64,000 nt of DNA from Clostridia bacterium (GTDB lineage: Bacteria; Bacillota; Clostridia; Oscillospirales; CAG-272). Shown piece by piece: positions 2,696 through 42,473 of this stretch. The notes below the pieces were generated by a model, which was not told the origin of the DNA, ran no database searches, and saw only the letters and a list, made by a program, of their open reading frames with translations. A program made the translations under genes and the position numbers. Each line of letters starts with the position of its first letter. Positions within the stretch are counted from its first letter, which is position 1. The stretch covers positions 1,029 through 65,028 of the forward strand of contig JAFXJH010000019.1 of the NCBI GenBank assembly GCA_017532425.1. Direction: 5' to 3'.

Positions 2696-2737
2696 TATCT
2701 GCGCATTTTTGCTATGATTTTTAAAAAGACCACAGCT

Positions 2738-2777
2738 TTTCGGGAGGCTTTCAAAAAGAGCTTCCCGAAATTTTTTG
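2738..2777 (+). terminator. Rho-independent terminator after the Cys-rich gene
   Basis: TTTCGGGAGGCT (2738-2749), a 9-nt loop, then AGCTTCCCGAAA (2759-2770). This gives a 12-bp stem with one G-U pair, followed by TTTTTT. Confidence 0.7.
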
Positions 2778-2825
2778 TTCGCATAAAATTCATAAAAAAA
2801 GAAGCTAAATTTCACTTGCCCGTTA

Positions 2826-2854
2826 TTGCAATAAGAAATAAAGTGTGATATAAT
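2826..2854 (+). promoter_or_regulatory. sigma-A type promoter for the 962-aa orphan gene
   Basis: TTGCAA (2826-2831), 17-nt spacer, TATAAT (2849-2854), with an upstream TG (gtgaTATAAT). Confidence 0.6.
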
Positions 2855-2896
2855 TTTAATAATACGAAACGCTTGGAAAGGAGGCGCGGTCAATTT

Positions 2897-11327: not shown

Positions 11328-11584
11328 GATAATACCCCCGAAAGGTAAGAAGTGTAAAAAGATAATTTTTGTCTATTATTATATATTTTTTTGCTTTAAT
11401 TGTCAAGCACTTTTCTGTATAATGTAACTGATGGCAAATATGTCCGAAGCTGTAATAAAATAAGTATTTTACAGCATAATATAATAATTTTCTACTTAAA
11501 TTAGCTGTTCTTGTGCTATAATTAAAGTGAAAAGTCTTTTATTTCGTTTTGTACGCACCTTTGTGCGGAATATGAGGTGATTTT

Positions 11585-14322: not shown

Positions 14323-14350
14323 TTTGAGATTAACGAAAGGACTTGAAACT

Positions 14351-15814
14351 ATGAAAAAAGTATATCTTGTAATACCCGAAAAAATAGGAAGAATAGCTCC
14401 CGAGGTCTACGGACATTTCTCCGAGCATATCGGCGGAGTGTTTTATGACGGAGTTTACGTAGGCAAGGATTCGGACGTGCCCAATATACGCGGCTTCCGT
14501 AAGGAGATAATAGAAAAGCTCAGAGATATAGCGCCTCCTGTGCTTCGTTGGCCGGGCGGATGCTACGCAGAGGTTTACCGCTGGCGCGACGGTATCGGTG
14601 AAAACCGTCCGACACGTCCGAGCTGGTGGACAAGAGACGACGGAAGATACGAGTCCAACGAGGTAGGAACTCACGAATTTATGGATTTCTGTGAGCTTAT
14701 TGGCGCAAAGCCTTATTTTGCAATGAACGTTACGTCGATAACTCCTATGGATGCACGTGATTGGATGGACTACTGCCTCTCACCGAAGGGAAGCACGACA
14801 CTTGCTCTCGAGCGTGAAAAGAACGGTCATCCGGAACCATTCGATATCCCTTATTGGGGCGTAGGAAACGAAAACTGGGGTGGCGGCGGTCATATGACTC
14901 CAGATTACTATGCTCTTGAATACCGTAAATTCTCAACGATAATGTATAATACGGTTCCCCGCGGACAGCACGTTGATCTTATCGCAGGCGGAGCTAACGG
15001 CGGCGATATCAGATGGACGGATGCGCTCGTAAAGGGACTTGAAAACTGCGGTGCTCCCGTGCACGGAATGTCCTTCCATTACTACTGCGGTAAAGCAGGC
15101 GACCCCGTGAACTTCACAGAGGATGAATGGTATCAGCTTCTCGACAGATCCGAGGTTATGGAAGAGCTGATTGTACGCCACTATGCAGGCGCGCAGGCTA
15201 AGAAGATGGAAGGCAAGCTGAAGCTCGTTATCGACGAGTGGGGATGCTGGCATCCCGACGGATCGGGCCCGAGCAAGGGATATAACCTCTTCGAGCAGCA
15301 GTCCACAATGCGCGACGCTATGGTATCCGCGCTTACTCTCAATATTTTCAACAATCATTGCGAAAAGATCAAGATGGCAAACGTTGCACAGCTTTGTAAT
15401 AATCTGCACGCGCTCTTCCTTGCAGGCGGAGAAAACTGCATAACCACGCCTACCTATCACGTCTTCAAGATGTATAAGGAGCATCAGGGCGCAGACGCAG
15501 TAAGATGCGTTACCGAAAATAACAGCGATCGCAGAAGCGCGATATCTGTTTCGGCATCCGAAAAGAACGGCTATCTGACAGTTACACTTGCAAACCGCAG
15601 CTGCACAGAGGACGCAGAGATCAGCCTCGAAGCACTCGGCGCAAGCGTTGAGGCAAATGCAAAGGCAATGCTTCTTGCAGAGGACGATATGCACGCGCAT
15701 AATACCTTTGAGGATCCCGAAAGAGTAACGATCAAGGAACTCGACGTTGACGTTTCAAAGCCGATAACTCTTCCCAAGGCGGGAATTATGAGCATTTCAA
15801 TTAAGCTTGCATAA
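14351..15814 (+). CDS. abfA: GH51 alpha-L-arabinofuranosidase
   Basis: Contains IAPEVYGHFSEHIGG, LRWPGGCYAEVYRWRDGIG and WGVGNENWG. ATG at 14351 follows GAAAGGA; the ORF-track TTG at 14324 lacks an RBS. Confidence 0.85.
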   Translation: MKKVYLVIPEKIGRIAPEVYGHFSEHIGGVFYDGVYVGKDSDVPNIRGFRKEIIEKLRDIAPPVLRWPGGCYAEVYRWRDGIGENRPTRPSWWTRDDGRYESNEVGTHEFMDFCELIGAKPYFAMNVTSITPMDARDWMDYCLSPKGSTTLALEREKNGHPEPFDIPYWGVGNENWGGGGHMTPDYYALEYRKFSTIMYNTVPRGQHVDLIAGGANGGDIRWTDALVKGLENCGAPVHGMSFHYYCGKAGDPVNFTEDEWYQLLDRSEVMEELIVRHYAGAQAKKMEGKLKLVIDEWGCWHPDGSGPSKGYNLFEQQSTMRDAMVSALTLNIFNNHCEKIKMANVAQLCNNLHALFLAGGENCITTPTYHVFKMYKEHQGADAVRCVTENNSDRRSAISVSASEKNGYLTVTLANRSCTEDAEISLEALGASVEANAKAMLLAEDDMHAHNTFEDPERVTIKELDVDVSKPITLPKAGIMSISIKLA

Positions 15815-22965: not shown

Positions 22966-23778
22966 TTAATTTTTGTTGAGAATCGATTTTATATCTTCAA
23001 AATCGGCATCGCTTACAAGAGCCTCGTCGCCGAGAGTGTACTCACGTCCGAGCATCTCGTACTTGTGAAGTCCGAGCTCGTGATATTTCAGCGCTTCTAT
23101 CTTTTCGATATTCGGGAATCGGTCAAGAAATTCTTTTATCTGCATAACGTCCTCTTTGCTTGCATTAAAGGTGTTGACAACAGGAATTCTTACCCAAATC
23201 TTTGCACCGCACTGATAGAGCCTCTCAAAATTCTCAAGGATAGTGCGGTTAGACATACCCGTGAATTTTTTGTGTTGCTCGTCATTCAGCGTTTTGATAT
23301 CGTAAAGAAATAGGGAAGCGTAGGGAATAAGCTTTTCGATGTTCGAAAATTCAACCGCACCGCAGGTATCGATAGCGACCGAAATACCGTGCTCTGCAAG
23401 CTTTTTCGTGCATTCGAGGATAAAATCGCTTTGAAGCAGACATTCTCCGCCCGAGAATGTCACTCCGCCTGTGTCCGAGAAAAAGTCGGCATCAGCAAGC
23501 AAAAGCTTCACAAGAGCGTCAGATGTGTACTCCTTGCCGTATGCGACAAGCGCGCCCGCGGGGCATACCTCTGCACCGTCAACTCTGCTTTTGTCCGCAC
23601 AGCTTTTGCAGGAAATGCATTTTCTCGGATCATACATAACGGACGTATCGCGAGTCAGACCCTCGGGATTCTGACACCACGCGCATCTCAGAGGGCATCC
23701 CTTCATAAATACCGTGGTGCGTACACCCGGTCCGTCGTGTAACGAGCATCTTTGAATGTTAAAAACTCTACCTGTCAT
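22966..23778 (-). CDS. Glycyl-radical enzyme activating protein (radical SAM)
   Basis: Contains SLHDGPGVRTTVFMKGCPLRCAWCQNPE plus the ferredoxin-like cluster CISCKSCADK..CPAGAL. Confidence 0.9.
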   Translation of the reverse strand: MTGRVFNIQRCSLHDGPGVRTTVFMKGCPLRCAWCQNPEGLTRDTSVMYDPRKCISCKSCADKSRVDGAEVCPAGALVAYGKEYTSDALVKLLLADADFFSDTGGVTFSGGECLLQSDFILECTKKLAEHGISVAIDTCGAVEFSNIEKLIPYASLFLYDIKTLNDEQHKKFTGMSNRTILENFERLYQCGAKIWVRIPVVNTFNASKEDVMQIKEFLDRFPNIEKIEALKYHELGLHKYEMLGREYTLGDEALVSDADFEDIKSILNKN

Positions 23779-23785
23779 AGCTTTA

Positions 23786-24736
23786 TCAGAAGTTTGCGTA
23801 TGTCAGCTTCCTCAGGATCTCCTCGTCGAGAACATATTCGGACATAAGGAGGTTTTCTTTGAGGTGATCGATGTTGGAGGAAGAGAAGAGCGGAACGATG
23901 GTAGGACGGTTCGGGAGTCTGTCAGAGCCGATAAGCCAAGCGAGAACGAGAGCGGAGGGTGCAAGACCGAGCTCCTTTGCGCTGTCAAGAAGAACGTTAA
24001 GACGTTCGTCTATCTGATACTTTCCGGGCATTCTCGCGATATTATCATATCCGCCGCCTGCAAGACAGGAGTAGGGAACGAGAGGTATATTGTTTTCTGC
24101 AAGATAGTGAAGTCTTTCTTCGGTGGCGTTTACGTTATAGGTGTAATTGAGCTTTGCTCCGCCTTTTGTGTAAAGATAGGTGTAGCAGGGCTGGTTTACC
24201 GTGAAATCAGCAAAGCCGTTCTTTTCGGCGATATGCTTTGCTTCGCACATACGCCATGTATAATAGTTGCTCGCACCGATAGCGCGTACCTTGCCCTTCT
24301 TTATAAGCTTATCAAAAGCCTCCATCGTTTCTTCGATGGGAGTGTTCATATCGTCGCTGTGAGCGTAGTAGAGGTCGATATAATCTGTTCCGAGCTTGCG
24401 AAGACTTTCGTCGCACCAGTACTCGATCTGCTTTGCGGAAAGTCCCGCGCCCTCGCCGTGACGGTCAAAGCCGACCTTTGTAGCGATAACGAGCTTGTCG
24501 CGTCCGCCTCTTTCCTTCAGCCATTTACCGAGCAGAGTTTCGCTCTCGTCGCCCGATGCACCCGGCCACCAGTGTGCATAGTTGTTGGATGTGTCGAGGA
24601 AGTTTCCTCCCATATCTACGAAAAGATCAAGCTGCTCGAAAGAATCCTTTTCGCTTGTTTTAGTGCCGAACATCATAGTTCCGAGACACATATTGCTGAC
24701 TTCAAGTCCTGCGCGTTCAAATTTTACTTTTTTCAT
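23786..24736 (-). CDS. Aldo/keto reductase family oxidoreductase
   Basis: Contains LGTMMFG, FLDTSNNY, IATKVG, IDLYYAHSDD and VRAIGASNY, which carry the AKR D-Y-K-H tetrad positions. Confidence 0.85.
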   Translation of the reverse strand: MKKVKFERAGLEVSNMCLGTMMFGTKTSEKDSFEQLDLFVDMGGNFLDTSNNYAHWWPGASGDESETLLGKWLKERGGRDKLVIATKVGFDRHGEGAGLSAKQIEYWCDESLRKLGTDYIDLYYAHSDDMNTPIEETMEAFDKLIKKGKVRAIGASNYYTWRMCEAKHIAEKNGFADFTVNQPCYTYLYTKGGAKLNYTYNVNATEERLHYLAENNIPLVPYSCLAGGGYDNIARMPGKYQIDERLNVLLDSAKELGLAPSALVLAWLIGSDRLPNRPTIVPLFSSSNIDHLKENLLMSEYVLDEEILRKLTYANF

Positions 24737-24763
24737 TTTTGTACCTGCCTTTCCTGAGGTTAT

Positions 24764-24793
24764 GAAGCTTTGAGGCGAAGGTCACAAAGCTTC
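24764..24793 (-). other. Intercistronic stem-loop between GRE2 and the AKR gene
   Basis: GAAGCTTTG (24764-24772) pairs with CAAAGCTTC (24785-24793): 9 bp with a 12-nt loop and no U-tract. Confidence 0.4.
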
Positions 24794-24809
24794 TGCCATT
24801 GTTTTATTT

Positions 24810-26996
24810 TCAGAATGTATTTCTTGAGATGAGATCGTCCTGTGCCTTTTTGCACATATCGACGAATACTGCGCTGTATCCGGTTACGCGTACCATAAGA
24901 TCGCGGTACATATCCGGTTTTTTCTGTGCGTCGAGCAGAAGCTCCTTGTCTACAGAGCTGAGCTGTATCTGAAGTCCGCCCTTTTCAAAATATACCGCAA
25001 TAATGTGAGAAAGATTTTCGAGTCCTGCTTCGCCATCGAAATTTCTGGGCTGTATCGTTACGTTAAGAGCGCCCGAAGCAAACTGATCGAAGGGGATATT
25101 TGAAATAGAGGAGAGCATAGCCGTGATACCGTTCTTTGCCGCGCCGACAGAGGGCTGACAGTTCTGACAGATGGGATCGCCTATGCGTCTTCCGTCGGGA
25201 GTTGCGGGAATGACCTCGCCGCGAGGAATGTGCCACGTGTCGTTCTCCGTGCAGAAGCGGAGCTTGAGGAAGGACGGGCGGTCCTTTGACGCATCCTTGC
25301 AGGCGTTTACTATAGCTTTGGTAAGCTCTCTTGCATAGTAGGATGAGGTGTCGTGACCGTCCCCCATCTTCGGAGAGTTCTTGCAAAGCGCTAAAAGAAC
25401 TTGGTCGTTTTCAAAGTTCGTGTCACACGCTGTGAATATTCTTTCGGCAGAGATATTCTTTTCGTTTATGAGATAATCCACAGCAGATGCTATATCTATC
25501 ATAGTGCCTATGCCGCCGAAGGGAACGACAAGGTTGGTGTTCTGAAAATACAGACCGCCTCTTGAAATGTTTTCAAAAGTAAAGCAGGAGCAGAATCTCA
25601 GCTGATTCGGATTAAAGTAGGGTTCCTTCAGCGTGGATTTCGAAATAAGCTCGGAGAATTTACCGAAGAACGTGTCGTAAATAGACTTCAACATTCCCTC
25701 TCGTGAGAACTCGCGTCCGTTTTCAAAGCTTGCACGGATAGCCTCCATAAGGGTGGGAATAAGACAGCGTTCAACACCGTAGTAGAATACATGATAGTTG
25801 GGAGCGTCCTTCGCGGGGATCGTCGGCCAGTTGCATCCGTAAAACTCGTGCGAGAGCGCATCGTATTCGCTTTCACCGAAGCTTTTGTACATTTCGCAAA
25901 CGCTGATGTCGTTGTAGACCATGATAGAGCCGCTTGCGCGCATCTTCGAAACGAGGGTCTTCCATACGTCGGCGTGATCCTTTGCAAAATCTCTTGTGTA
26001 ACGGAAAACGATGACCGGATTTTTGTATTTCGGATGTATGCGCTCGACCATAAGCTCTGTAAGACCGTTGCATACCGTCTTCTTGGTTTCAGGGTCAGTA
26101 CCCGAAAGAATAAGATACTGCGGAGCGTCGTAGCAGAGGATTCTGTGCCATCCCGTGCAGTTGGGAGAGTTTTCGCGGTTTGATATCTGATGCTCTCCGC
26201 GTCCCATAATGAGGTTGTTCTTGGCGTAGAATTCTTCTATAAGAAGGGCAGCCGTTTCTCTGTCTATACTGCCTTCGGAAAGCTCTTTTTCATATATCTT
26301 GTTCATAAAAAGATCGAGTCTTCCGAGCGCAAGAGTCGGGTTTGGTGAAATGTAGGCGCAGAATATAAATTCAATCGACCATACGAGCTGAAAAGCGGCG
26401 TGCAGAGTTTGCGGAGCGCCGGAAGCTGCCTCTCTGCAGGCTTTTGCCGAATCAAGCAGACCTTTTGCCTCGGCGGCTTCTGCGGAGCGCTCGATAAAGC
26501 AGATGATAGATTCGTATATCATTATTGCGCCGCGCAGGAAGCTGCATTTTTCCTCACAGCCCTGCTCGGTGTATATTTTAAGAGACTTTTCTGCCTCTGC
26601 CTTGAGGGCGGGAAGACCCTTTTCTATTATATCCTTCCAGAGGAATGACTGATGTCCTGCGTCGAAAAAGAATTTCGGAATACCCTCGTTTTTCATAAGA
26701 GGGGTTATATATTTTTCGCGGAAAGCCTTTTCCTCATCCTCATTAAAGGACTCCTCAACCATACGTCCGATAAGAATATCGTTTTCGCTGACAGGAATCG
26801 AAACTCGCGATAAAAACGCCTTGAGCGCGTTGCCGAGCTTGAGAGGCTGATTTTCAATATCCTTTACCTCCTCGCATATCTCGCTCCAAAGGCGGACACG
26901 CTCGGATGAATAGGTTACTACAGGCTTTTTTGTAAGGGCATAGATAGCCTCTTTTTGCATATTTTCTCTTAAAAAATCAAAGTTTTCTCTGTTCAT
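24810..26996 (-). CDS. Glycyl radical enzyme (PFL2-like), 728 aa, unknown substrate
   Basis: Glycine-radical segment DLMVRVTGYSAVFVDM. Contains ATPDGRRIGDP and GGLQIQLSSV. Candidate Cys loop EFYGCNWPT. ATG at 26996 follows AAGGAGA; the ORF-track start at 27092 adds 32 implausible residues. Confidence 0.85.
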   Translation of the reverse strand: MNRENFDFLRENMQKEAIYALTKKPVVTYSSERVRLWSEICEEVKDIENQPLKLGNALKAFLSRVSIPVSENDILIGRMVEESFNEDEEKAFREKYITPLMKNEGIPKFFFDAGHQSFLWKDIIEKGLPALKAEAEKSLKIYTEQGCEEKCSFLRGAIMIYESIICFIERSAEAAEAKGLLDSAKACREAASGAPQTLHAAFQLVWSIEFIFCAYISPNPTLALGRLDLFMNKIYEKELSEGSIDRETAALLIEEFYAKNNLIMGRGEHQISNRENSPNCTGWHRILCYDAPQYLILSGTDPETKKTVCNGLTELMVERIHPKYKNPVIVFRYTRDFAKDHADVWKTLVSKMRASGSIMVYNDISVCEMYKSFGESEYDALSHEFYGCNWPTIPAKDAPNYHVFYYGVERCLIPTLMEAIRASFENGREFSREGMLKSIYDTFFGKFSELISKSTLKEPYFNPNQLRFCSCFTFENISRGGLYFQNTNLVVPFGGIGTMIDIASAVDYLINEKNISAERIFTACDTNFENDQVLLALCKNSPKMGDGHDTSSYYARELTKAIVNACKDASKDRPSFLKLRFCTENDTWHIPRGEVIPATPDGRRIGDPICQNCQPSVGAAKNGITAMLSSISNIPFDQFASGALNVTIQPRNFDGEAGLENLSHIIAVYFEKGGLQIQLSSVDKELLLDAQKKPDMYRDLMVRVTGYSAVFVDMCKKAQDDLISRNTF

Positions 26997-27259
26997 AGTA
27001 TGATCTCCTTGCATAGAGAATATGGGCATAGGTGTGATAGATAAAGACACTTTACACCCATTTAAGTATACCACATAAAAAATAAAAGTCAATTATCTGC
27101 AAAAATATTTAAAAAATTTTTCACTACATAAAAGTATATCTTAAACTTAATAAAATTGACTTGATTTTTTTATAAATATAGGTTATATTTTATATATAGA
27201 ATGTCTGCGTATACGTTTTGGCAGATATTATAAACGTTTTTGAAAGAGATCTGATACAA

Positions 27260-28639
27260 ATGTTGAAACTTTTCAGAAAAAATAAAGCATTTTGCAAGGC
27301 TGATAAGCTGACCTATGGCCTTCCGATAGAGAAGAATTTTTCTCCGAAGGGAATATACCTTTCCGTGTCAGAGACCTGCGTGTCTGTCGGTGAAGAGGTC
27401 GGCATAGGCTCGCTTGTCGGTAAGAATTCGGACGGAGCGTCCGTGTGCTCGGGTATTTCGGGAAAAATATCTGAGATCAAAAAGATATCCGATAGCAAGT
27501 ACGGCGTAAATATAGAAAACGATCTTGCAAAAAGACAAGGCGAATATCTCCGTCCCTTCGGCGAGGAAAACAATATAAGGGTTACCGATATCACACCCGA
27601 AATGCTGATAAGCGTTATGAAAAAGGCGTCGGTAAAAACTCGTGGACATCAGATATCGGCAAACGATCGCACGGTATTTCAGAGAATTGAGGATTCGTTT
27701 GGAAAAGCAAGACAGATAGTGATAAACTGCGTTGGCGGCGAGCCTTACGACAGCTCTTTTAAGCGCATTATGCTTGAAAACGCATCTGACGTAATAAACG
27801 GTATGAAGCTCGTTATGGCGGTTATGAAGATAGGAGAGGGCGTTCTTCTTCTCGACTCGGAGAGCAGTGAATGTGCAAATACGCTTTCGTCGATGCTTGC
27901 CCCAAAAGACAATATAAAGGTCGTTCTTGCAGATATGGCTTATCCCACGGATAACGAGCATAACGTGATATACACACTCACGTCGATAGAGATTTCGCGC
28001 AAAAGAAGCGCAGAGCGTGTTGGGTGCGTGGTATTTGATCTGCATGAGATACTTGCCGTTGCAAGAGCTTTTATTTACGGCGAGGTCGAGACCTGCGAAA
28101 TAATCACAGTATCGGGAGACGCGCTTTCAAAGCCGATGAATCTGAAGGTTCCTTACGGAACGAAAATATCCGAAATAGCCGACTACTGCGGAGTGAATAA
28201 GGATATCGACGTCAAGATTATCGCAGGCGGAGTCTTGCGCGGCAAAGAGGTCGGCACAGAGGATGTTTTTGAAGTCGGAATGTCACCTTTGGTATTACTG
28301 AACGCAAAAAAGATACCTTCATTTAACGGTGTGAGATGTATGAGATGCGGCTCGTGTATGCGCGCCTGCCCGATGCTTCTTATGCCTATGTATCTCAGCC
28401 TTTCGGGATTTTCGGGTGTCAAAGCATTCGGAAAAATGTTTGATATAAGCGCGTGCACCGAGTGCGGAGTCTGTCAGTACGTTTGCCCCGCGGGAATACC
28501 GATACTGAAGAATATACGCAGGATGAAGGACACCTTGCTGCCCGATACGGCAGATGAAAATGATAAAACTGCAGAAAATAAGCCCGAAAAAGAAGAAAAT
28601 AGCGAAAAATCGCAGGACGTCGGAGGTGACAAGCAATGA
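27260..28639 (+). CDS. RnfC-like protein (barrel-sandwich N-terminus, SLBB-like middle, 2x[4Fe-4S] ferredoxin C-terminus)
   Basis: Contains CMRCGSCMRACP and CTECGVCQYVCPAGIP, plus INCVGGEPYDSS (compare INGAECEPY in RnfC). ATG at 27260 follows GAAAGAG; the alternative TTG at 27218 has no RBS. Confidence 0.65.
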   Translation: MLKLFRKNKAFCKADKLTYGLPIEKNFSPKGIYLSVSETCVSVGEEVGIGSLVGKNSDGASVCSGISGKISEIKKISDSKYGVNIENDLAKRQGEYLRPFGEENNIRVTDITPEMLISVMKKASVKTRGHQISANDRTVFQRIEDSFGKARQIVINCVGGEPYDSSFKRIMLENASDVINGMKLVMAVMKIGEGVLLLDSESSECANTLSSMLAPKDNIKVVLADMAYPTDNEHNVIYTLTSIEISRKRSAERVGCVVFDLHEILAVARAFIYGEVETCEIITVSGDALSKPMNLKVPYGTKISEIADYCGVNKDIDVKIIAGGVLRGKEVGTEDVFEVGMSPLVLLNAKKIPSFNGVRCMRCGSCMRACPMLLMPMYLSLSGFSGVKAFGKMFDISACTECGVCQYVCPAGIPILKNIRRMKDTLLPDTADENDKTAENKPEKEENSEKSQDVGGDKQ

Positions 28640-29580
28640 CTAAAAAGGAATACGTTGTATGCCCTCCGTATGCCTCGAGCAGAGGCGACATAAGAGACCT
28701 TGACGTTTTGGTGGCTCTTATTCCTATCGTCGCTTGGGCGGTCTTTATGTTTGGCTGGAGCTCGATGCTTTTCGTTGCTGTCGGCGTAGCATCAAGCGTC
28801 GTCTTTGAGATGGTCGTCGAGCTTTTTCTGTTTAAGAAAATAGGATACGGAGTTGTGAACGCGGCTCTTACAGGACTTCTGATATCGCTGTCCGTGTCTC
28901 CGAATGCACCGGTATGGCTTCCCGTGCTCGGAAGCGCGGTGGCAATATTCGTCGCAAAATATCAGTTTGTCGTGCTCGCGGAGTACGGAAGCTTTTTCTC
29001 GCCTGCGGCTCTCGGTATGCTTATATGCGGAGTTTATCCCGAAAACGAGCATGCTTTCGTGGACGGTCTGCGAAACGCACTTTATCCCGAGGACGGAATG
29101 CTTAACGTATTTCTCGGTAATACCGAGGGAGCTCTCGGCACGGTATCCGCACTTTTGCTCGCATTTGCGGCAATATATCTCTTGCTCAGAGGAGCACTTT
29201 CATTTAAAACGGTGCTGTCCGCACTTGTCGTTATGTCAGCAATGTCACTTATGATCGTTCCTGCGTGGACTACGTTTTCCGATAATATGATATATCAGAT
29301 CATAGGCGGAGGATTTTTGTTCTATCTCGTGTTTGCGGCAGGTGACCGTATGGGCTCTCCCGTTACCGAAATGGGTAAGCTTGTCTACGGCGCGGGATTT
29401 GCGGCCCTCGTATTCGTTTTTCGATTCTATACAGACCTTCCCGCGTGTGAAGCTATGAGTGCGGTAATAATGAGTATACTTACTCCCGTGATTGATTTGT
29501 ATACAAGACAGTCACCCTTCGGCGGAGTTGTGCGCACCGCGAAACCAGAGAATGACACGCCTGCAAAATCAAAGAAATAA
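28636..29580 (+). CDS. RnfD/NqrB-like polytopic membrane protein
   Basis: Contains NTEGALGTVSALLLAFAAIYLLLRG and FAAGDRMGSPVTEMGK (compare GSLGE.SAL...L.R and ATD.VTSP in RnfD). The ATGA start/stop overlaps the RnfC-like gene. Confidence 0.6.
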   Translation: MTKKEYVVCPPYASSRGDIRDLDVLVALIPIVAWAVFMFGWSSMLFVAVGVASSVVFEMVVELFLFKKIGYGVVNAALTGLLISLSVSPNAPVWLPVLGSAVAIFVAKYQFVVLAEYGSFFSPAALGMLICGVYPENEHAFVDGLRNALYPEDGMLNVFLGNTEGALGTVSALLLAFAAIYLLLRGALSFKTVLSALVVMSAMSLMIVPAWTTFSDNMIYQIIGGGFLFYLVFAAGDRMGSPVTEMGKLVYGAGFAALVFVFRFYTDLPACEAMSAVIMSILTPVIDLYTRQSPFGGVVRTAKPENDTPAKSKK

Positions 29581-29620: not shown

Positions 29621-30561
29621 ATGAAAAGTCCGTTTCCTTATTCCGATTCGAATAAGAGATATTATACGTACGATTATTTTTTGAGAAAAAAGTTCGGACA
29701 AAGGTTTTTAAGGTCACGCTCGACGCGGGATTTACCTGCCCGAATATAGACGGAAGTAAGGGAAGAGGAGGGTGCACCTACTGCTCCTCGAGAGGCAGCG
29801 GAGATTTCGCGGCTTCTGCCTCGCTTTCTATAGAAGAACAGTATAATACGGTCAGAGCTGTAATGGACAAAAAATGGGAGGGCGGTCTGTGTATCCCCTA
29901 TTTTCAGGCTCATACAAATACGTATGCTCCGACCTGCGTGCTCAGAGAAAAGTTTGAGCAGACACTAAAGCTTCCCGATGCCGTAGGACTCGATATCGCG
30001 ACACGCGCCGATTGTCTCTCGGACGAAACGGTTGAATATCTCCGTGAGCTTCACGAGAGGACCTTTCTGACAGTCGAGCTCGGACTTCAGACTGTGCACG
30101 ACGTCACGGCTGAAAAAATAAACAGATGCCATACGTACGAGGAATTTCTTAAAGGCTATGAGAAGCTGAAAGGACTTAACGTGTGCGTTCATATAATCAA
30201 CGGTCTGCCGGGTGAAACTCACGAAATGATGCTCGATACGGCAAGAGAGCTTGCACGCATAAGACCCTTTATGCTGAAGATACACCTGCTTCATATCATA
30301 GCGGGTACAAAAATGGCAGAGCAGTATCTTGCGCACGAGTTTGAGCTTCCTACGCTTGAAGAGTACGTAGAGATGGTGTGCGATCAGCTTGAAATACTTC
30401 CCGAGGATACCGTTATAGCACGCGTTACGGGCGACGGAGCTCCCGATACCCTCGTTGCTCCGCTGTGGAGCAAGAAGAAATTTGTGGTTATGAACGAGAT
30501 AGATAAGGAGCTTTTGCGCCGAAATAGTATGCAAGGATCCAAATATTTCCAAAAAACTTGA
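29621..30561 (+). pseudogene. TIGR01212-family radical SAM gene (YhcC/YtqA-like) interrupted by a 1-nt frameshift
   Basis: From ATG 29621: MKSPFPYSDSNKRYYTYDYFLRKKFGQ. After the A-run at 29700-29702 the homologous sequence continues in another frame: KVFKVTLDAGFTCPNIDGSKGRGGCTYC... This joins the ORF-track 29863..30561 product. The first frame stops at 29747-29749. Confidence 0.7.
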
Positions 30562-32846: not shown

Positions 32847-32876
32847 ATATAATAATTGATGAAAGGATGTTCGATT

Positions 32877-33785
32877 ATGGATTCAAACGGATTTAATAAC
32901 GAGCCGATCAATAAGCAGCAAAGCGAAAATACAGATTTTTTTTCAAACGGAGCATATGATGAGCCGACAGTACCCGATAAGGGCGCGATATTTGCGGAAA
33001 AGATAAGAGCTATGTTCAGATCAAATGCATATCTTACGGCAACTATTGCATATACGGTTATGGCAAGCGCATCTCTGATATGGGGAAATCTTGATGTTTT
33101 TGCGGTGCTTTTCACAGTAGGAATGTGGATAGCGTATACTGCAGCGGCAAAGGGTGCACCTCTCAAGGAAATGAAATTTCTTTCGGGCGTGCTGAAGGCG
33201 TACTATATTCTTACAATTGTAGGAATAGTTTGCATGATAGTTTCGGGCGTGATATGTATGATATGCGGCCCTATGGTGATAAACTATGAAAAAGAAGTCT
33301 TGGATGCTTTAAAGATCATCGAAACAGACTTCGGCGGATCATTTTATTTTACTTGGGGCAGTGAGGTAACCTACTTTACGGCGGAAGAGCTTGCCGCAAA
33401 GGTTTTTGAGCTTTTCGGTCTGACGCTTTCAACCGCACTCGGAATAATTCTGATAATTCTCGGAGTTGTTCTTGTAATTTCCGCAGTTGTTTTGATACTT
33501 ATGAATGAGTTTTTCGTTCATAAGCTCAGTAAGCAGTTTGTAAAGGCAATAGCTGCTCTGACACTGAATACAGATGCAGAGCTCTGCTTCAAGACGGTAA
33601 GAGTCTTTGCTACTGTGCTCGGTGTTCTGACCGCTATTTCGGCGGCATCGGCAATAGCAAGCTTTGATATGATCTTCCTTGCAAGCGAGGGTGCTTATGC
33701 CGTAGCATATTTCGCAATAGCCTCGGCACTCAAAGAACCGCAGGAGCAGACTGCGACCTCAAGCACCGCAGAGCCGATGCTCTGA
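32877..33785 (+). CDS. Polytopic membrane protein, unknown function
   Basis: ATG at 32877 follows GAAAGGA. There are at least 5 hydrophobic segments and no recognised motif. Confidence 0.6.
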   Translation: MDSNGFNNEPINKQQSENTDFFSNGAYDEPTVPDKGAIFAEKIRAMFRSNAYLTATIAYTVMASASLIWGNLDVFAVLFTVGMWIAYTAAAKGAPLKEMKFLSGVLKAYYILTIVGIVCMIVSGVICMICGPMVINYEKEVLDALKIIETDFGGSFYFTWGSEVTYFTAEELAAKVFELFGLTLSTALGIILIILGVVLVISAVVLILMNEFFVHKLSKQFVKAIAALTLNTDAELCFKTVRVFATVLGVLTAISAASAIASFDMIFLASEGAYAVAYFAIASALKEPQEQTATSSTAEPML

Positions 33786-36746: not shown

Positions 36747-38660
36747 ATGCTCAATATGTTAAAAAAATTCAGACATACAGAAGGACTTCTGGCAAGATAC
36801 GCAAGGCTTGTCTGTGACACCGTTGTTCCGTATCAGGAAAGAGCGATCAGAGATGAGATAGAGGGGGTAGTTCCCAGCTATGCTATTGAGAATTTTAAAA
36901 ATGCTGCCATTCTCAATAAGACGGGCGTAAAGCCTGCCGGCGGTGATCATAAAGGCTGCGTATTTCAAGATAGTGACGTTGCAAAATGGATAGAGGCAGC
37001 GGCATATTCTCTTTCGGTTAAGCCGGATGCCGAGCTTGAAAAACGCCTGGATGAGGTGTGCGAGCTTATAGGAGAGGCGCAGGAGGCTGATGGATATCTC
37101 GATACTCACTTTACGCTTAACAGACCAAAAGAGAAGTTTACCGAACTTGTAGGCGGTCACGAGCTCTACTGCTCAGGTCATATGATAGAAGCGGCCGTTG
37201 CACTTTACGAGATCACAGGAAAGAAAAAACTGCTTGACACCGTATGTAAAAACGCAGATATGCTCTACCGTGTTTTTGTTACAGAGGGTCGTGAGGGATA
37301 TCCGGGGCATCCCGAAATAGAGCTTGCTCTTTTGAGACTTTGGCGCGTGACGAATGAAGATCGATATATGGAGCTTGCAAAGCATTTTATTGATATTCGC
37401 GGAATCGATACGGATTTCTTTAATAAGGAGTACCGTCGCCTGGGTATCAATATTATATACGACAATCACTATTCTCAGTGCCACGCACCTGTAAGACAGC
37501 AAAGTGACGCCGTGGGACACGCGGTAAGGGCGGCATATCTTTATACAGCAATGGCAGATCTTGCAGCTATTACAGACGATAAGGAGCTTGAAGATGCTTG
37601 CTTCAGACTGTTTGAGAGTATTGAAAAGCGTCGTATGTATATTACAGGCGGAATAGGCTCCTCCTATCACGGAGAAGCATTTACAGCTGATTACGATCTT
37701 CCGAGCGATACTGCATATACAGAGACCTGCGCTTCTATCGCTTTGATATTCTTTGCTTCCAAGCTGCTCAAGCTCAGACGTGAAGGAAGAATAGCAGACG
37801 TAATGGAACGAGCTTTGTATAACACCGTTCTTGCAGGAATAGAGCTTGACGGAAAAAAGTTTTTCTACGTAAATCCTCTTGAGGTGCTTCCCGGAATTTC
37901 GGGTAATATACCTACGCACAGACATGCGCTTCCACAAAGACCGGGATGGTACGGTTGCGCTTGCTGTCCGCCCAATACCGCACGTTTGATTGGATCTGTT
38001 GCAAATTATGCGTGGGATGAGCAGGACGGGATACTTTATTCTAATTTGTTTGCATCCGGAGAGCTTACGCTTTCAAACGTTACTCTCGAGGTGGAGACAG
38101 ATTATCCGTTTGGGGATACTGTGAAATACAAGGTAAAAAAAGGAAGTACAAAGCTTGCTATCCATATTCCCGCTTTTACTTTGAAGAATTATTCGGTATC
38201 TGCGCACGGCGAACTTAAAAGCGGATATTACTATCTTGAAGTAAATGAAGGCGACGAGGTTACAGTTAAAGTAGAAATGATTCCTCGACTTTACCGTTCG
38301 AATACAAGAGTGGCATCTAACAGCGGCAAGGCTGCGGTAATGGTAGGACCTGTCGTTTACTGTGCCGAAGAGAAGGATAACGGAGACGTTCTTGGATTTT
38401 CATTCAGAAGCTCTGCCGAGCTTAAGCTGAATAAAGAAACTCCTGAGCAGATCGGAGGATTTTACTCCGAGGCCAGCGATCTTGGAGCGGTATATACGGT
38501 TACGGCAGAGGGTCAACAAACGGTTATGGATAACGCAAGTGATCTGTATTTTACAGACGAATACCGTAAGGAAGAAAAAACACTTAAACTGATTCCGTAC
38601 TTTATGTGGGGAAATCGCGGACTTAATCAAATGAGAGTCTGGATGCCTGTGGAATTGTAA
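36747..38660 (+). CDS. GH127 (DUF1680) beta-L-arabinofuranosidase-like
   Basis: Contains QDSDVAKWIEAAAYSL and ELYCSGHMIEAAVALYEITG, plus the conserved Cys cluster GWYGCACCPPNTARL. The start could be 36747 or the ATG at 36756. Confidence 0.8.
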   Translation: MLNMLKKFRHTEGLLARYARLVCDTVVPYQERAIRDEIEGVVPSYAIENFKNAAILNKTGVKPAGGDHKGCVFQDSDVAKWIEAAAYSLSVKPDAELEKRLDEVCELIGEAQEADGYLDTHFTLNRPKEKFTELVGGHELYCSGHMIEAAVALYEITGKKKLLDTVCKNADMLYRVFVTEGREGYPGHPEIELALLRLWRVTNEDRYMELAKHFIDIRGIDTDFFNKEYRRLGINIIYDNHYSQCHAPVRQQSDAVGHAVRAAYLYTAMADLAAITDDKELEDACFRLFESIEKRRMYITGGIGSSYHGEAFTADYDLPSDTAYTETCASIALIFFASKLLKLRREGRIADVMERALYNTVLAGIELDGKKFFYVNPLEVLPGISGNIPTHRHALPQRPGWYGCACCPPNTARLIGSVANYAWDEQDGILYSNLFASGELTLSNVTLEVETDYPFGDTVKYKVKKGSTKLAIHIPAFTLKNYSVSAHGELKSGYYYLEVNEGDEVTVKVEMIPRLYRSNTRVASNSGKAAVMVGPVVYCAEEKDNGDVLGFSFRSSAELKLNKETPEQIGGFYSEASDLGAVYTVTAEGQQTVMDNASDLYFTDEYRKEEKTLKLIPYFMWGNRGLNQMRVWMPVEL

Positions 38661-38685
38661 AAATATTTGCATAATATTGTTTAGT

Positions 38686-38712
38686 AAAAAGCACTGCAGA
38701 GCAGTGCTTTTT
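38686..38712 (+). terminator. Rho-independent terminator after the GH127 gene
   Basis: AAAAAGCACTGC, loop aga, GCAGTGCTTTTT. Confidence 0.8.
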
Positions 38713-38751
38713 GCGTCTTATATTATATGCCGACTTTTTATCACATTTTTA

Positions 38752-38780
38752 TTTACAAAAGGAAAAAACTGTGATATAAT
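38752..38780 (+). promoter_or_regulatory. sigma-A type promoter
   Basis: TTTACA (38752-38757), 17-nt spacer, TATAAT (38775-38780), with extended TG (tgtgaTATAAT). Confidence 0.6.
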
Positions 38781-38856
38781 CAAAATACAAGCAAATAATA
38801 TTTGAATTTATATGAAAGGACAGCTTCGATTTAAAAAACGAAGCACGGTGATAACA

Positions 38857-40782
38857 ATGAGATACAGACCCGTTGCCGTTCCGCTTGTAACAGTTGACCC
38901 ATTTTTCTCGATCTGGTCGTGTGACGACGCTCTTTACGGAGGACCCACACAGCACTGGTCGGGTAAGCTCTGCCCGATAACCGCAGGAATTCTCGTAGGC
39001 GGAGAATTCGTTTCCATGGGAGCGTTCGAGCCTAATGGAAGAGCGATCAAGCGCCGCGCATATCAGACAGGCCTTAAGATCACTCCCACAAGCTCGATAT
39101 ACGAGTTTGAAAACGAGCTTGCAAAGGTTACTCTTACCTTTACGACTCCTCTCCTTCTTAACAGACTCGATATAATGACACGCCCCGTAAGCTACGTGGC
39201 GTATAAGATAGAGAGCAAGACTCAGAGACCGATAAGATTCGTGTTCGGTGTAAGCTCACGCGCGTGCGTAGATAACATAGGACAGAGCGTTTCCTTCAGC
39301 CGTACAAAATGCTCGGTAAGATGCGGAAATACATGTCAGACCCCTCTTGCACAGTCGGGCGATAACGTAATGATAGACTGGGGATATCTCCATATCTGCG
39401 ATAAGACCGCAATGCCCGGAAAGATAGCAGCTCAGAACAGAATCGAGGCATATCCGATAAACCGTACCTACGACGCTTTTAATGAAGAGCCCTACCTTAT
39501 GGTAATAAAGGACGAGCAGGAAGGCGTAGTTACTCTCGGATACGACGAGATCAAGCCTATCGAATATTTCGGCGATCAGCTTGATGAATATTATACCAAG
39601 TATTTTGACAGCTTTGAGGATATGCTCCTTGCAGCACATAATCAGTATTCCGAGATCAAGGCGCTTTGCGATGAGTTTGACGCATCTCTTACGGCAGAGA
39701 CCTCCGCACTCAGCGAGGATTACGAAAAGATAACCTCTCTCGCATACCGTCAGGCGATTGCGGCACATAAGCTCGTTGAGGATACAGAGGGCAATATCAT
39801 CTTCCTTTCCAAGGAAGACGACTCCAACGGATGTATAGGCACGCTTGACGTTACATATCCGTCGATCCCGCTCTTCCTTAAGTATAACCCCGAGCTTGTA
39901 AAGGGTATGCTCAGACCTATCATAAAGTATGCTAAATCGGACGTCTGGACCTTCGATTTCACACCTCACGACGTAGGACAGTATCCGCTTGCAAACGGTC
40001 AGGTATACGGAACTTATCCCTTCAAGATCTGGGATATTGATTCTTACAGAATCTACGGAAAACTCGCATTCGAAAAGCAGATGCCTATCGAGGAAGCGGG
40101 AAATATGCTCCTTTGCCTTGCGGCAGTAAAGAAATATTCGGGCGGAGATCAGAGTCTTTTCGATGCCGATAAGGAGATCATGAAGCAGTGGACTGATTAT
40201 CTCGTAAAATACGGCTACGATCCCGAAAATCAGCTCTGCACGGACGACTTTGCAGGACATCTCGCAAGAAACTGCAACCTCAGCGTTAAGGCTATACTCG
40301 GTATCGCGGCATACGCATCTCTTTCGGGCGACGATTCCTATATGGATATCGCAAGAGAGTACGCAAAGAAATGGGAGATCGATGCAAAGGCATCTCACGG
40401 CGCTACACGCCTGACCTTCGACGGCGAGGATACCTGGAGTCTTAAATATAATATCGTTTGGGACGACCTTCTCGGATATAACCTCTTCTCCGATGAGGTA
40501 AAGAAGGCTGAGATAGAGCTCTATAAGACGAAGTTCAACCGCTACGGCGTTCCGCTTGACAGTAGAGCTGACTTCACAAAGATCGACTGGCTTATGTGGG
40601 CAACATGCATACATAAGGATAAGGAATTCTTTGACGAGGTATGCGCAAGCATGATGAGAATGATAAACGAGACGGTAGACAGAGTTCCGCTTACCGACTG
40701 GTACTTTACAAGCACAGCGGCATTCCGCGCGTTCAGAAACAGAAGTGTAGTCGGCGGACTTTTCATAAATCTTCTTGACTGA
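38857..40782 (+). CDS. DUF4965/DUF1793 (glutaminase A-like) family protein, probable glycoside hydrolase
   Basis: The N-terminus MRYRPVAVPLVTVDPFFSIWSCDD..HWSGK is characteristic of this family as recalled. The start is 38857 (weak GGTGA RBS) or 38812 (no RBS). Confidence 0.6.
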   Translation: MRYRPVAVPLVTVDPFFSIWSCDDALYGGPTQHWSGKLCPITAGILVGGEFVSMGAFEPNGRAIKRRAYQTGLKITPTSSIYEFENELAKVTLTFTTPLLLNRLDIMTRPVSYVAYKIESKTQRPIRFVFGVSSRACVDNIGQSVSFSRTKCSVRCGNTCQTPLAQSGDNVMIDWGYLHICDKTAMPGKIAAQNRIEAYPINRTYDAFNEEPYLMVIKDEQEGVVTLGYDEIKPIEYFGDQLDEYYTKYFDSFEDMLLAAHNQYSEIKALCDEFDASLTAETSALSEDYEKITSLAYRQAIAAHKLVEDTEGNIIFLSKEDDSNGCIGTLDVTYPSIPLFLKYNPELVKGMLRPIIKYAKSDVWTFDFTPHDVGQYPLANGQVYGTYPFKIWDIDSYRIYGKLAFEKQMPIEEAGNMLLCLAAVKKYSGGDQSLFDADKEIMKQWTDYLVKYGYDPENQLCTDDFAGHLARNCNLSVKAILGIAAYASLSGDDSYMDIAREYAKKWEIDAKASHGATRLTFDGEDTWSLKYNIVWDDLLGYNLFSDEVKKAEIELYKTKFNRYGVPLDSRADFTKIDWLMWATCIHKDKEFFDEVCASMMRMINETVDRVPLTDWYFTSTAAFRAFRNRSVVGGLFINLLD

Positions 40783-40805
40783 CGTAATTAAATAATATAA
40801 AATAC

Positions 40806-40832
40806 AAAAACCGCAGAACTTCTGCGGTTTTT
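40806..40832. terminator. Bidirectional terminator
   Basis: AAAAA-CCGCAGA, loop act, TCTGCGG-TTTTT. Confidence 0.8.
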
Positions 40833-40856
40833 GTTGTTTTGATAAGCAAATTGTAA

Positions 40857-41261
40857 TTATTTTTTGTCAGATGTTTCTAAGAATTTCTTTGCTTCTTCAA
40901 GTATTGCCTTAATCACTCCGGCTACTCCACCGAAAGTAGGAGATAACCCGTCCGGAAAAGCTGTTATAAATCCAAAAATATCGGAAACGGTAATAGCCAA
41001 TCCGCCAATTAAGAAGAACCAAATGAAAAATTTTATCTGTTCGTAAGATGCGTTATTTCCTATTCCTTTGAACAATAATTTCGTGAAAAAGTATATTACA
41101 AAGAAAAAAATCGGCACAAGAACAAGGACGGTTATTCTGTCAACACCTTCTCTGTAGATTAACGTTAGTGTTCCGAATATAATAAAAAGAAGTACGTAAA
41201 TAACAAAAATAAGGTATCTCTTTTCAACTAACTTTTTAAGCATTTTTTTCCTCCGTTTCAA
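40857..41261 (-). CDS. Small membrane protein (3-4 TM), unknown function
   Basis: 134 aa with hydrophobic segments. It starts 6 nt downstream of the GH43 gene, and its codon usage is AT-rich relative to neighbours. Confidence 0.5.
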   Translation of the reverse strand: MKRRKKMLKKLVEKRYLIFVIYVLLFIIFGTLTLIYREGVDRITVLVLVPIFFFVIYFFTKLLFKGIGNNASYEQIKFFIWFFLIGGLAITVSDIFGFITAFPDGLSPTFGGVAGVIKAILEEAKKFLETSDKK

Positions 41262-41267
41262 ATGTTA

Positions 41268-42473
41268 TTAATTCTTCAGCTTAATAACATCGCCTGTCGT
41301 ATCTACCTCGATGCAATATACGTTCTTCTGCTTGATAGGTCCGTGGAAGGTTATCATAAGTCTTCCGTCAGCATCTCTGAACATAAATCCGTGTCCTCCG
41401 TCGCGTCCGTAGCGATAGTCGCCGATTCCGCGTGCAAATACGCATTCCTCCTGCTGTACCCAAGGACCAAGGATGCCGTTATCAGAGTATGCAACGCCGA
41501 TGCAGTATTCTCCCGAGATCCAACCCGACCAGATCATAGCAAGCTTTCCGCTTTCGAAACGGTGGACAAAAGGACCGTCGGTTACGTTGTTCTTGGGATT
41601 CCAAGGAGCATCGTTTGCATAGAAGAGCGTTGTTATCTCGCCCTCGAATGCGGTGAGGTCGTCGGTCAGACGGCAAGCGCACATGCTTCCGATGTGATCG
41701 GGCATAGAGGTCCATTCGTGAACGAATACCATCCAGGGATCGCCGTTTTCGTCAACGTAAAGCGTGTTGTCAATGCAGTCCCAATCGGAGGGCGTGAGAT
41801 GACCGTTTGTTATAAGCTCGTACTTTCCGTCGGGCTTGTCACAGCGGAATATAGCGCATCCGCGGTGTCCGCTCTTTTCCGAGAAATAGGTTGCGAAAAT
41901 ATAGAATTTGCCCTTGTATTCCCAAATTTCGGGCGCCCAGTAATGGCTTATTCCGTCGAATGCGGGGTTTGTACACTCCTGCGCGTTGAAGGCGTGTATC
42001 GGCTCGCCCCAATCGTACATATTGTCGCTTACGTATATCTCGTATCCGTTATTGGCATTACCGCCGTGATATGTGCAGACGAAGCTGCAGAGATAATATT
42101 TTCCGTCGTGACAAAGAATGCTCGGGTCACTCGTTATCATAACCTTTGTGTCGATATGGAGATCTTCAAGATAGGGCGTTTCTCCCATATGGCTGCGGAT
42201 AAGACGCTGTGCGGCATAGTAGAGAGTTTCAAGATTTCCCGCGATAAGAGTAACGCTTTCCTTTTCGCAGGAAACGTCAATGCTGTAGCTCTTGAATTCA
42301 AGAGAAGAGTCGACCGCGAGAGTGATAGAGGGACAGCCTGCGTCCTCGGTATCCTCGAGCGAAATACTGTATTTTTTGAGAACAGCCTCGCGTATGATAT
42401 CTGCGATCTCTTTTGTTTCCTCGCTGGAAACGATCTTGAGCGAAGCAATCGGTAAAAGCTTGTTGTTTTTCAT
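41268..42473 (-). CDS. GH43-family glycoside hydrolase (arabinofuranosidase/xylosidase-like) with an extra ~100-aa N-terminal domain
   Basis: Contains SDPSILCHDGKYYL, YWAPEIWEYKGKFYIFATY, DCIDNTLYVDENGDPWMVF and VTDGPFV. Confidence 0.75.
   Translation of the reverse strand: MKNNKLLPIASLKIVSSEETKEIADIIREAVLKKYSISLEDTEDAGCPSITLAVDSSLEFKSYSIDVSCEKESVTLIAGNLETLYYAAQRLIRSHMGETPYLEDLHIDTKVMITSDPSILCHDGKYYLCSFVCTYHGGNANNGYEIYVSDNMYDWGEPIHAFNAQECTNPAFDGISHYWAPEIWEYKGKFYIFATYFSEKSGHRGCAIFRCDKPDGKYELITNGHLTPSDWDCIDNTLYVDENGDPWMVFVHEWTSMPDHIGSMCACRLTDDLTAFEGEITTLFYANDAPWNPKNNVTDGPFVHRFESGKLAMIWSGWISGEYCIGVAYSDNGILGPWVQQEECVFARGIGDYRYGRDGGHGFMFRDADGRLMITFHGPIKQKNVYCIEVDTTGDVIKLKN

Follow-up and report, generated by a model that had tools for sequence, protein, structure and literature searches.

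A two-gene RnfC-like/RnfD-like locus without rnfGEAB in uncultured Clostridia as a candidate Rnf-derived iron–sulfur module

Described Rnf-type systems and the RnfC-like/RnfD-like pair

In the Rnf complex electrons pass from the flavin mononucleotide (FMN) of RnfG to that of RnfD, then via riboflavin to the clusters of RnfC, and finally through a further FMN to NAD+ (PMC9588780, PMC12174285). In the Na+-NQR system, NqrA, a homologue of RnfC, has lost its cofactors but still forms part of the complex, where it docks to NqrB (PMC12174285, PMC9588780). Here, we describe a 64-kb stretch of contig JAFXJH010000019.1 of a Clostridia bacterium (hereinafter the window, to which all coordinates refer unless another locus is named), which codes for two adjacent genes related to those of RnfC and RnfD. 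The RnfC-like gene (27260–28639, + strand; 459 aa) specifies an RnfC fold with two [4Fe-4S] motifs and a disordered acidic tail, and the RnfD-like gene (28636–29580, + strand; 314 aa) an RnfD fold in which the covalent-FMN loop is gone and residues of the Na+/flavin site are altered. The pair is Rnf-derived and in this sense ordinary in origin; no description of its two-gene architecture was found in the literature searched, an RnfC/RnfD-only pair being absent there also from an RNF/NQR review and two flavinylation surveys.

The best matches of the pair by both sequence and fold are the Rnf complexes of Clostridium tetanomorphum (7ZC6), Acetobacterium woodii (9ERI) and Azotobacter vinelandii (8AHX), with which it shares the two [4Fe-4S] motifs of RnfC, a 10-helix RnfD with terminal arms, and the adjacent and coupled C–D order. 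However, it differs from them in lacking rnfG, rnfE, rnfA and rnfB, the FMN/NADH loop of RnfC, and the covalent-FMN loop, Asn124 and Glu185 of RnfD, as well as in missing the corresponding NCBIfam cut-offs. In NqrA there is a precedent for an RnfC stripped of its cofactors; the iron–sulfur clusters, however, are missing from it as well, while its partner NqrB keeps the covalent FMN and all six NQR subunits are present. Scores of at most 61 bits against NqrA models with cut-offs of 321 bits or more, and of 52 against 350 bits for NqrB, place the pair outside Na+-NQR. A likeness in one respect is seen in the so-called NQR/RNF-like systems, which are partial Rnf/Nqr derivatives whose NqrB/RnfD-like subunit is also devoid of the flavinylated Thr. 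These systems, found mainly in Actinobacteria and the candidate phyla radiation, combine an RnfD-like and an NqrF-type NAD-binding domain in one fused polypeptide, and also include ApbE and an RnfG/NqrC-like subunit that is flavinylated (PMC8238504; 10.1101/2024.03.13.584918). In contrast, the RnfD-like protein of the window contains PF03116 only in its 314 aa, with no fusion, has no FMN_bind or ApbE domain encoded nearby, and is paired with an RnfC-like partner.

RnfC derivatives have also been put to use outside the Rnf complex. PduS is a soluble, FMN- and NADH-binding protein that is not known to have an RnfD partner and is accompanied by shell proteins, while RnfC2 of the A. woodii methylene-tetrahydrofolate reductase is an RnfC-derived electron-transfer subunit outside Rnf; in both RnfC2 and PrdC of proline reductase the flavin/NADH site is retained, and neither is known to be paired with an RnfD. 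RnfC2 and PrdC resemble the present RnfC-like protein in being electron-transfer subunits of RnfC descent that work outside the complex; against the PrdC model TIGR04481 it scores 53.3 bits, far below the cut-off of 490. RnfC-like subunits of the PduS type have been reported with glycyl radical enzyme (GRE) microcompartments, and PduS shares with our locus an RnfC-type protein combining Complex1_51K, SLBB and two [4Fe-4S] elements encoded near a GRE (PMC11659671). The pair differs, in a comparison made without a PduS-specific model, by the lack of shell-protein domains nearby, the missing FMN loop and the RnfD-like partner.

The two genes overlap by 4 nt, with the ATG of the RnfD-like gene lying on the TGA of the RnfC-like gene (CAATGACT). 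Domain scans covering the open reading frames (ORFs) of the window and related loci of ~20 kb recovered no FMN_bind (RnfG), Rnf-Nqr (RnfA/E) or RnfB-type ORF in the 64 kb beyond the pair itself, and no rnfG/E/A/B-type gene in 11 related loci; the six-subunit rnfCDGEAB set is thus absent from the locus as searched. The first-pass annotation, made from the letters alone, had described just two Rnf-like genes, coupled through an ATGA and without rnfGEAB, and both the ORF coordinates and the domain scans bear this out. It had also placed a TIGR01212 radical S-adenosylmethionine (SAM) gene 40 nt downstream with no terminator in the gap, and a control region of about 260 nt shared with a divergent GRE operon (GRE2). 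Both observations hold: the next same-strand gene begins at 29621, 40 nt past the TAA of the RnfD-like gene, scores 248 bits as TIGR01212 and is preceded by a gap in which our site scan of the window found no terminator-like site, while GRE2 begins at 26996 on the − strand, leaving an intergenic region of 263 nt. Scanning the window for Rfam families and tRNA genes gave no matches.

Predicted cofactor sites of the two proteins

The RnfC-like protein scores 204.4 bits against the TIGR01945 rnfC model, under its curated cut-off of 245.95. In Pfam scans it matches the Fer4 families and, with 58 bits, Complex1_51K over profile positions 28–149 of 150 only, while NQRA_SLBB stays below cut-off and RnfC_N gives no match; by comparison, the canonical RnfC encoded at locus L080 reaches 160, 105 and 37 bits with Complex1_51K, RnfC_N and SLBB, respectively. 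The profile check proposed at the outset, therefore, returned a partial Complex1_51K, no RnfC_N, a sub-threshold SLBB and the Fer4 domains. An AlphaFold2 model of the protein (predicted local distance difference test, pLDDT, 81.5) has as its best Foldseek match in the PDB the A. vinelandii chain 8ahx_C (template-modelling score, TM, 0.80; 7zc6_C 0.77), and the range across the RnfC chains 7zc6_C, 9eri_C and 8ahx_C is 0.77–0.80 as against only 0.62 for NqrA. Both CxxCxxCxxxCP motifs are present, as the first-pass annotation had stated, the first as CMRCGSCMRACP (28337–28372, + strand; residues 360–371) and the second as CTECGVCQYVCP (28454–28489, + strand; residues 399–410), and their eight cysteines are invariant across a 31-sequence alignment. 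The nucleotide loop has fared differently. In an alignment to C. tetanomorphum RnfC (7zc6_C), as well as in one of the clade with canonical sequences, the loop GIVGMGGATFPTH of the former aligns with KTRGHQISANDRTVF in the RnfC-like protein (27635–27679, + strand; residues 126–140). The Gly-rich GxGGAxFP FMN/NAD(H) loop is absent from 10/10 clade homologues and present in 5/5 canonical RnfC proteins, so that the earlier remark that the GxGGAGFP loop was missing applies to the window protein and to every aligned member of its clade. The acidic low-complexity tail pointed out at the same time is also real, with 11 D/E among the last 34 residues at a pLDDT below 50, yet it varies within the clade. 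The alignments and the model, taken together, show a predicted RnfC fold that keeps both [4Fe-4S] motifs and has lost the Gly-rich loop for FMN/NAD(H) binding.

For the RnfD-like protein, the suggested search with the NQR2_RnfD_RnfE family gave a divided answer: it passes Pfam PF03116 with 165 bits (cut-off 27.7; the canonical RnfD of L080 scores 387) but falls short of TIGR01946 with 120.9 bits against a cut-off of 207.05. It has ~9–10 hydrophobic segments, and its AlphaFold2 model (pLDDT 80) finds 9eri_D and 7zc6_D as best PDB matches in Foldseek (TM 0.78), with lower values for NqrB (0.64–0.72) and for Amt/urea transporters (~0.4–0.5). Neither the window protein nor any other member of the clade has the xxATPL flavinylation stretch (TTATPL in 7zc6_D), which has been deleted. 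The deletion falls between FSPAALGML and FLGNTEGALG, at FVDGLRNALYP (29056–29088, + strand; residues 141–151), where ~21 residues including the motif of the flavinylated Thr have been lost. The protein accordingly has no S/T-G-A-S/T motif for covalent FMN, which upholds the failure of the first-pass annotation to find the S/TGAT site and extends it to the whole clade.

The changes reach beyond this loop. In the C. tetanomorphum Rnf structure Asn124, Glu185 and Asp248 have been assigned to Na+ and flavin binding (PMC9588780). At these positions, for which we keep the C. tetanomorphum numbering, the window protein has Ser122, Thr169 and Asp237 in its own numbering, two of the three being replaced. 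We compared 22 clade members with 88 motif-bearing representatives of the family. The position of Asn124 is Ser in 21/22 of the former and Asn in 87/88 of the latter; that of Glu185 is Thr, Lys or Ala in 21/22 clade members and Gly in the remaining one as against Glu in 86/88 representatives; and Asp248 remains Asp in 21/22, with the adjacent residue changed from Tyr to Arg. Thus, alignment and modeling show a predicted 10-helix RnfD fold that is retained without the periplasmic covalent-FMN loop, Asn124 and Glu185.

Based on these features we propose, with moderate confidence, that the pair constitutes an Rnf-derived two-subunit membrane iron–sulfur module rather than a ferredoxin:NAD+ oxidoreductase or an ion pump. 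In Rnf the N- and C-terminal ends of RnfD grip RnfC (PMC9588780), and both ends of the RnfD-like protein are conserved within the clade. Because of this conservation and the 4-nt gene overlap, the formation of a complex is supported, and the two proteins would dock as RnfC and RnfD do. Electrons would then enter and leave only via the two [4Fe-4S] clusters, although a non-covalent flavin might sit at Asp237, the retained counterpart of C. tetanomorphum Asp248; confined in this way, they would make the complex a membrane-tethered, ferredoxin-like two-cluster relay or a redox sensor. Reduction of NAD+ or ion pumping by the known route would be impossible for such a complex. The membrane-linked electron module suggested in the first-pass annotation hence survives as an Rnf-derived membrane Fe–S module devoid of nucleotide and flavin sites, but the radical SAM or activase clients proposed for it remain hypothetical.

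Two other functions are suggested by the same structural features. The proteins might be alternative C′ and D′ subunits that swap into a canonical rnfCDGEAB complex, or combine with rnfGEAB products encoded elsewhere, and thereby change or block its activity. The retention of the fold and of the RnfD terminal arms would suit this role, and some organisms do possess two Rnf operons (PMC4901216). However, there is no further Rnf gene in the 64-kb window, and the known electron path would be broken at both ends because the RnfD FMN, Asn124, Glu185 and the FMN/NADH site of RnfC are lost; we accordingly consider a subunit swap quite improbable. Alternatively, the RnfD-like protein could have reverted to being a solute or ion channel, with the RnfC-like Fe–S protein as its redox-sensitive cytoplasmic lid. 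RnfD and NqrB are structurally related to Amt/urea transporters (PMC12174285), as is also hinted at by the weak Foldseek matches, and the membrane fold has been kept while the redox cofactor sites were lost. Yet the residues of the Na+ path are changed, no substrate-related genes are found among the neighbors and such an arrangement is without precedent, making a channel distinctly unlikely.

Distribution, constraint and transcription of the pair

Homology searches delimit a tight clade at 43–99% identity, beyond which values drop to ~30% for canonical RnfC and RnfD. When 1.84 billion cluster representatives were searched with a profile, the clade accounted for 3 of the 4,645 RnfD-family matches. 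A pattern scan based on the clade alignment, with each species represented by a single genome, detected it in at least 5 of 185,579 species, all of them uncultured Oscillospiraceae or ‘Eubacteriales’ metagenome-assembled genomes, and returned clade members only; this count is a lower bound because the scan rests on two peptide patterns. For closer study we used 11 related uncultured Oscillospiraceae/Eubacteriales genomes, namely that of the window and those represented by L001–L005, L007, L010, L015, L016 and L018. Both ORFs of the pair are intact in all 11, as is the order RnfC-like, RnfD-like, TIGR01212, EF-G-like, SpoIVA. Wherever gene calls are available, an unannotated membrane-protein gene lies between the last two. 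In the window (32856–33785, + strand) it codes for a 309-aa predicted membrane protein without a Pfam match; it is syntenic in those relatives that have gene calls or for which tblastn gives a match, and, at 31–67% identity and a dN/dS of ~0.17–0.29, it evolves as fast as the RnfC/D-like pair.

Compared to the window, the EF-G-like, SpoIVA and TIGR01212 proteins of the relatives are 80–96% identical, whereas the RnfC-like and RnfD-like proteins show only 45–67% and 43–77% identity, respectively. Nei–Gojobori dN/dS values for the closer pairs, which are rough because dS is near saturation, amount to 0.13–0.21 for the RnfC-like gene, 0.09–0.17 for the RnfD-like gene and 0.02–0.09 for the neighbors (values for the Na/Pi transporter from two pairs were an alignment artefact and were left out). 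This rapid divergence, along with the loss of the catalytic motifs and the existence of other partly degraded Rnf clusters (L022, see below), might be taken to indicate a decaying, functionless relic of an Rnf operon that lost rnfGEAB. On the other hand, the ORFs remain open in 11/11 genomes at ~45% divergence, their dN/dS lies at 0.09–0.21, invariant positions are numerous and include the 8 Cys, and the promoter-like block and ribosome-binding region are conserved. Accordingly, we regard a relic as very improbable, and these codon and alignment comparisons show a pair that is fast-evolving yet under purifying selection, not a pair of pseudogenes.

Upstream of the RnfC-like gene lies a conserved promoter-like block of ~45 nt (CTTAATAAAATTGACTTGATTTTTTTATAAATATAGGTTATATT; 27146–27189, + strand), within which a consensus scan locates a sigma-70-like TTGATT-17-TATATT (27161–27189). 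The block is nearly invariant in 10 aligned related genomes, including the GRE-less L003 and L016, at a divergence where the proteins are ~45% identical. The ribosome-binding region TTTTGAAAGAGA (27238–27249, + strand), ahead of the ATG at 27260, is likewise almost unchanged in the upstream alignment of these 10 genomes. The ORF list had placed the start of the RnfC-like gene at TTG 27218; we rejected this start because the conserved ribosome-binding region sits between it and ATG 27260, where the homologues begin with MLKLF. As promoter- and terminator-like sites in the window are no more numerous than in shuffled sequence, the promoter call carries weight because of its cross-genome conservation alone, and on this ground the block is a putative promoter of the pair's own. 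GRE2 has a separate promoter-like site on the opposite strand (27092–27065). The pair, having its own block that is conserved also in genomes without the GRE, and lying next to a separate GRE2 site, is therefore likely to be an independent transcription unit. We found no separate promoter-like site for the TIGR01212 gene, and transcription probably reads through from the pair into it.

Neighboring genes, candidate clients and related loci

The divergent GRE2 operon (22966–26996, − strand) comprises genes for the GRE (24810–26996), an aldo-keto reductase (23786–24736) and an activase (22966–23778), and is best seen as a neighbor rather than a required part of the system. The GRE2 protein of 728 aa is always paired with the aldo-keto reductase and scores far under every curated GRE equivalog cut-off (best TIGR01774, 206 against 678 bits); its neighbor suggests that it is an aldehyde-forming lyase or dehydratase. 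The first-pass annotation had raised the possibility that the pair feeds the activase of this operon, which would be analogous to the PduS-type RnfC-like proteins described from GRE microcompartments (PMC11659671). The GRE2 and aldo-keto reductase genes do adjoin the pair in 7/11 genomes, despite an outer flank that differs between a Na/Pi transporter and LysM/GH18 genes. However, GRE2 is intact in these 7 only; fragments of it are all that is left in L004 and L015, L003 and L016 have none of it, and in all four the pair persists intact with its 8 cysteines, so that the conserved pairing with GRE genes that was to be expected is not observed. (The decayed GRE in some relatives is a 200–230-aa Gly_radical fragment.) Further, the activase lies outside the GRE2 cluster in L007 and L010, no microcompartment shell genes or domains are encoded by the neighboring ORFs, and the two units have back-to-back promoter-like sites of which that of the pair is kept in GRE-less genomes. 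Because the GRE is lost or decayed in 4/11 genomes while the pair and its promoter-like block are conserved, GRE2 and its activase are unlikely clients. Thus, a dependence of the pair on GRE2 is unlikely, the proposed module would not depend on it, and a role in feeding the GRE2 activase in particular strikes us as exceedingly improbable.

The window also contains a second GRE system (10530–15814), consisting of an AraC-type regulator (10530–11327, − strand), a GRE (11585–13546), an activase (13543–14322) and, at its end, an alpha-L-arabinofuranosidase (14324–15814), with GH127, GH43 and GtaA-like glycosidases further downstream at 36747–42473. In a different part of the window (59–5785, + strand), two adjacent large ORFs of 878 and 970 aa, with matches to RYYR-CCHC and GAP1-N2 (GTPase-associated protein 1) only, may represent a conflict or defense-type system.

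The TIGR01212 gene downstream of the pair (29621–30561, + strand) is of the MnmL/YtqA/YhcC type. Its C-terminal 232 aa account for the 248 bits (cut-off 180), and its reading frame is broken near 29700 by the loss of 1 nt from a short run of A (near 29698–29703; GTTCGG-ACAAAGG in the window against GTTCGGACAAAAGG in L002), which leaves a short 5′ piece and an ORF at 29863–30561. DNA alignment shows the orthologues of L001–L003 to be intact, and the frameshift either stems from faulty sequencing or assembly or marks a pseudogene peculiar to the strain. TIGR01212 proteins have been assigned to the conversion of 5-carboxymethylaminomethyl-2-thiouridine (cmnm5s2U) to 5-aminomethyl-2-thiouridine (nm5s2U) in tRNA (bioRxiv 10.1101/2023.12.21.572861, 10.64898/2026.05.18.725915). 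In the clade the gene follows the pair on the same strand in 11/11 genomes, with a gap of 21–65 nt in 10 of them. Radical SAM enzymes need a one-electron donor. Hence, the pair, which would be co-transcribed with MnmL, its sole consistently linked candidate client, could be a dedicated low-potential reductant of the MnmL [4Fe-4S] cluster in the cmnm5s2U to nm5s2U reaction. The short same-strand gap, free of terminator-like sites in the window, the one-electron requirement, and the conserved promoter-like block ahead of the RnfC-like gene coupled with the lack of a separate one for TIGR01212 all favor this role.

Several observations, however, weigh against such a client and against the iron–sulfur module as we propose it. 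There is no evident electron input because the FMN/NADH site is gone. The nonsynonymous rate of the pair is ~3–10 times that of its neighbors, which would fit relaxed constraint, at a dS of ~1–2.4 that is close to saturation. Both YtqA of Bacillus subtilis and YhcC of Escherichia coli work without such a partner (bioRxiv 10.1101/2023.12.21.572861, 10.64898/2026.05.18.725915), and the literature searched offers neither a link of Rnf to TIGR01212/MnmL/YhcC nor the name of any such partner. In L001 an unrelated 342-aa gene (10986–12014 of that locus) with a faint aminoglycoside-phosphotransferase-type match is inserted between the RnfD-like and TIGR01212 genes; because of this insertion, tight adjacency is not obligatory. 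More generally, the next 5 kb past TIGR01212 (EF-G-like, membrane protein and SpoIVA genes) are common to the pair-bearing genomes, and because the adjacency lies inside this block of conserved synteny, it counts as one phylogenetic event.

A wider survey points in the same direction. A metagenome scan with the TIGR01212 alignment yielded 80 loci at 51–70% identity, representing ~36 lineages at 90% clustering. For 59 loci of other lineages the sequence extends 1 kb or more upstream of TIGR01212 (2.4 kb or more in 41 of them), and in none of these is an RnfC/D-like gene found there. L067 keeps the TIGR01212/EF-G-like order, and its upstream genes code for ThiF and a DEAD-box helicase; in L080 a canonical rnfCDG lies 2.7 kb downstream of TIGR01212, which we take as coincidence. 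The co-occurrence with TIGR01212, which the first-pass annotation had proposed for testing, therefore, is complete within the clade (11/11) but lacking upstream of the loci surveyed from other lineages (0/59), and the adjacency is, from these gene neighborhoods, clade-specific and counts as a single evolutionary event. A distant pair at L011 is also without a radical SAM neighbor, and another at L012 without TIGR01212 in its 3.3 kb. Given this restriction to one narrow clade with wholesale synteny, we consider it rather unlikely that the pair serves as the MnmL reductant.

These distant loci nevertheless bear on the iron–sulfur module more generally. L011 (10001–12308) and L012 (277–2569) each code for an RnfC-like/RnfD-like pair that comes without rnfGEAB and has neither the flavinylation motif nor the Gly-rich loop; L011 is part of a 452-kb contig from another kind of organism, whose context is not Firmicute-like because of its PEP-CTERM and type IV pilus genes. 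A third arrangement is found in L022 (8692–12175; also in L021 and L023), where an RnfC with an intact FMN loop but an altered second Cys motif accompanies a motif-less RnfD. Here, RnfE- and RnfA-like genes are present, RnfG and RnfB are absent and a PGA_cap gene follows; the corresponding protein cluster has 40 members, on contigs of up to 1.4 Mb. Among the best 150 RnfD-family representatives, a list that favors loop-less sequences since the loop is missing from the query profile itself, 53–59 (about one-third) have no recognizable S/T-G-A-S/T by a regular expression on the aligned loop (P0087–P0233). Many of these motif-less versions also have other residues in place of Asn124 or Glu185, and in a crude neighbor-joining tree they mostly fall beside the window clade. 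A word-index search with 12 diverse motif-less RnfD-like proteins returned mostly canonical motif-bearing RnfD. We accordingly view it as unlikely, if conceivable, that cofactor-stripped RnfC–RnfD pairs form a recurrent and so far undescribed class of two-subunit membrane iron–sulfur complexes of several origins (the window clade, the unrelated pairs of L011 and L012, and the RnfCDEA type of L022) that was here recruited as a dedicated, membrane-bound MnmL reductant.

Rnf and Nqr are usually treated as fixed six-subunit machines. The clade described here appears to have kept the RnfC–RnfD output half by itself: the flavin and NADH sites are gone, yet selection on the genes is purifying and a promoter-like block ahead of them is conserved. 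The other degraded Rnf-derived clusters suggest that the locus is no one-off. The automatic annotation of such proteins as ‘RnfC’ and ‘RnfD’ would lead metabolic reconstructions to wrongly attribute an Rnf complex to these uncultured Clostridia of the gut. Should the module have a defined client, it would amount to an experiment of nature on the importance of individual Rnf residues for pumping; and, if it is true that it serves a client of the radical SAM type, it would represent a new route by which low-potential electrons are supplied or sensed at the membrane.

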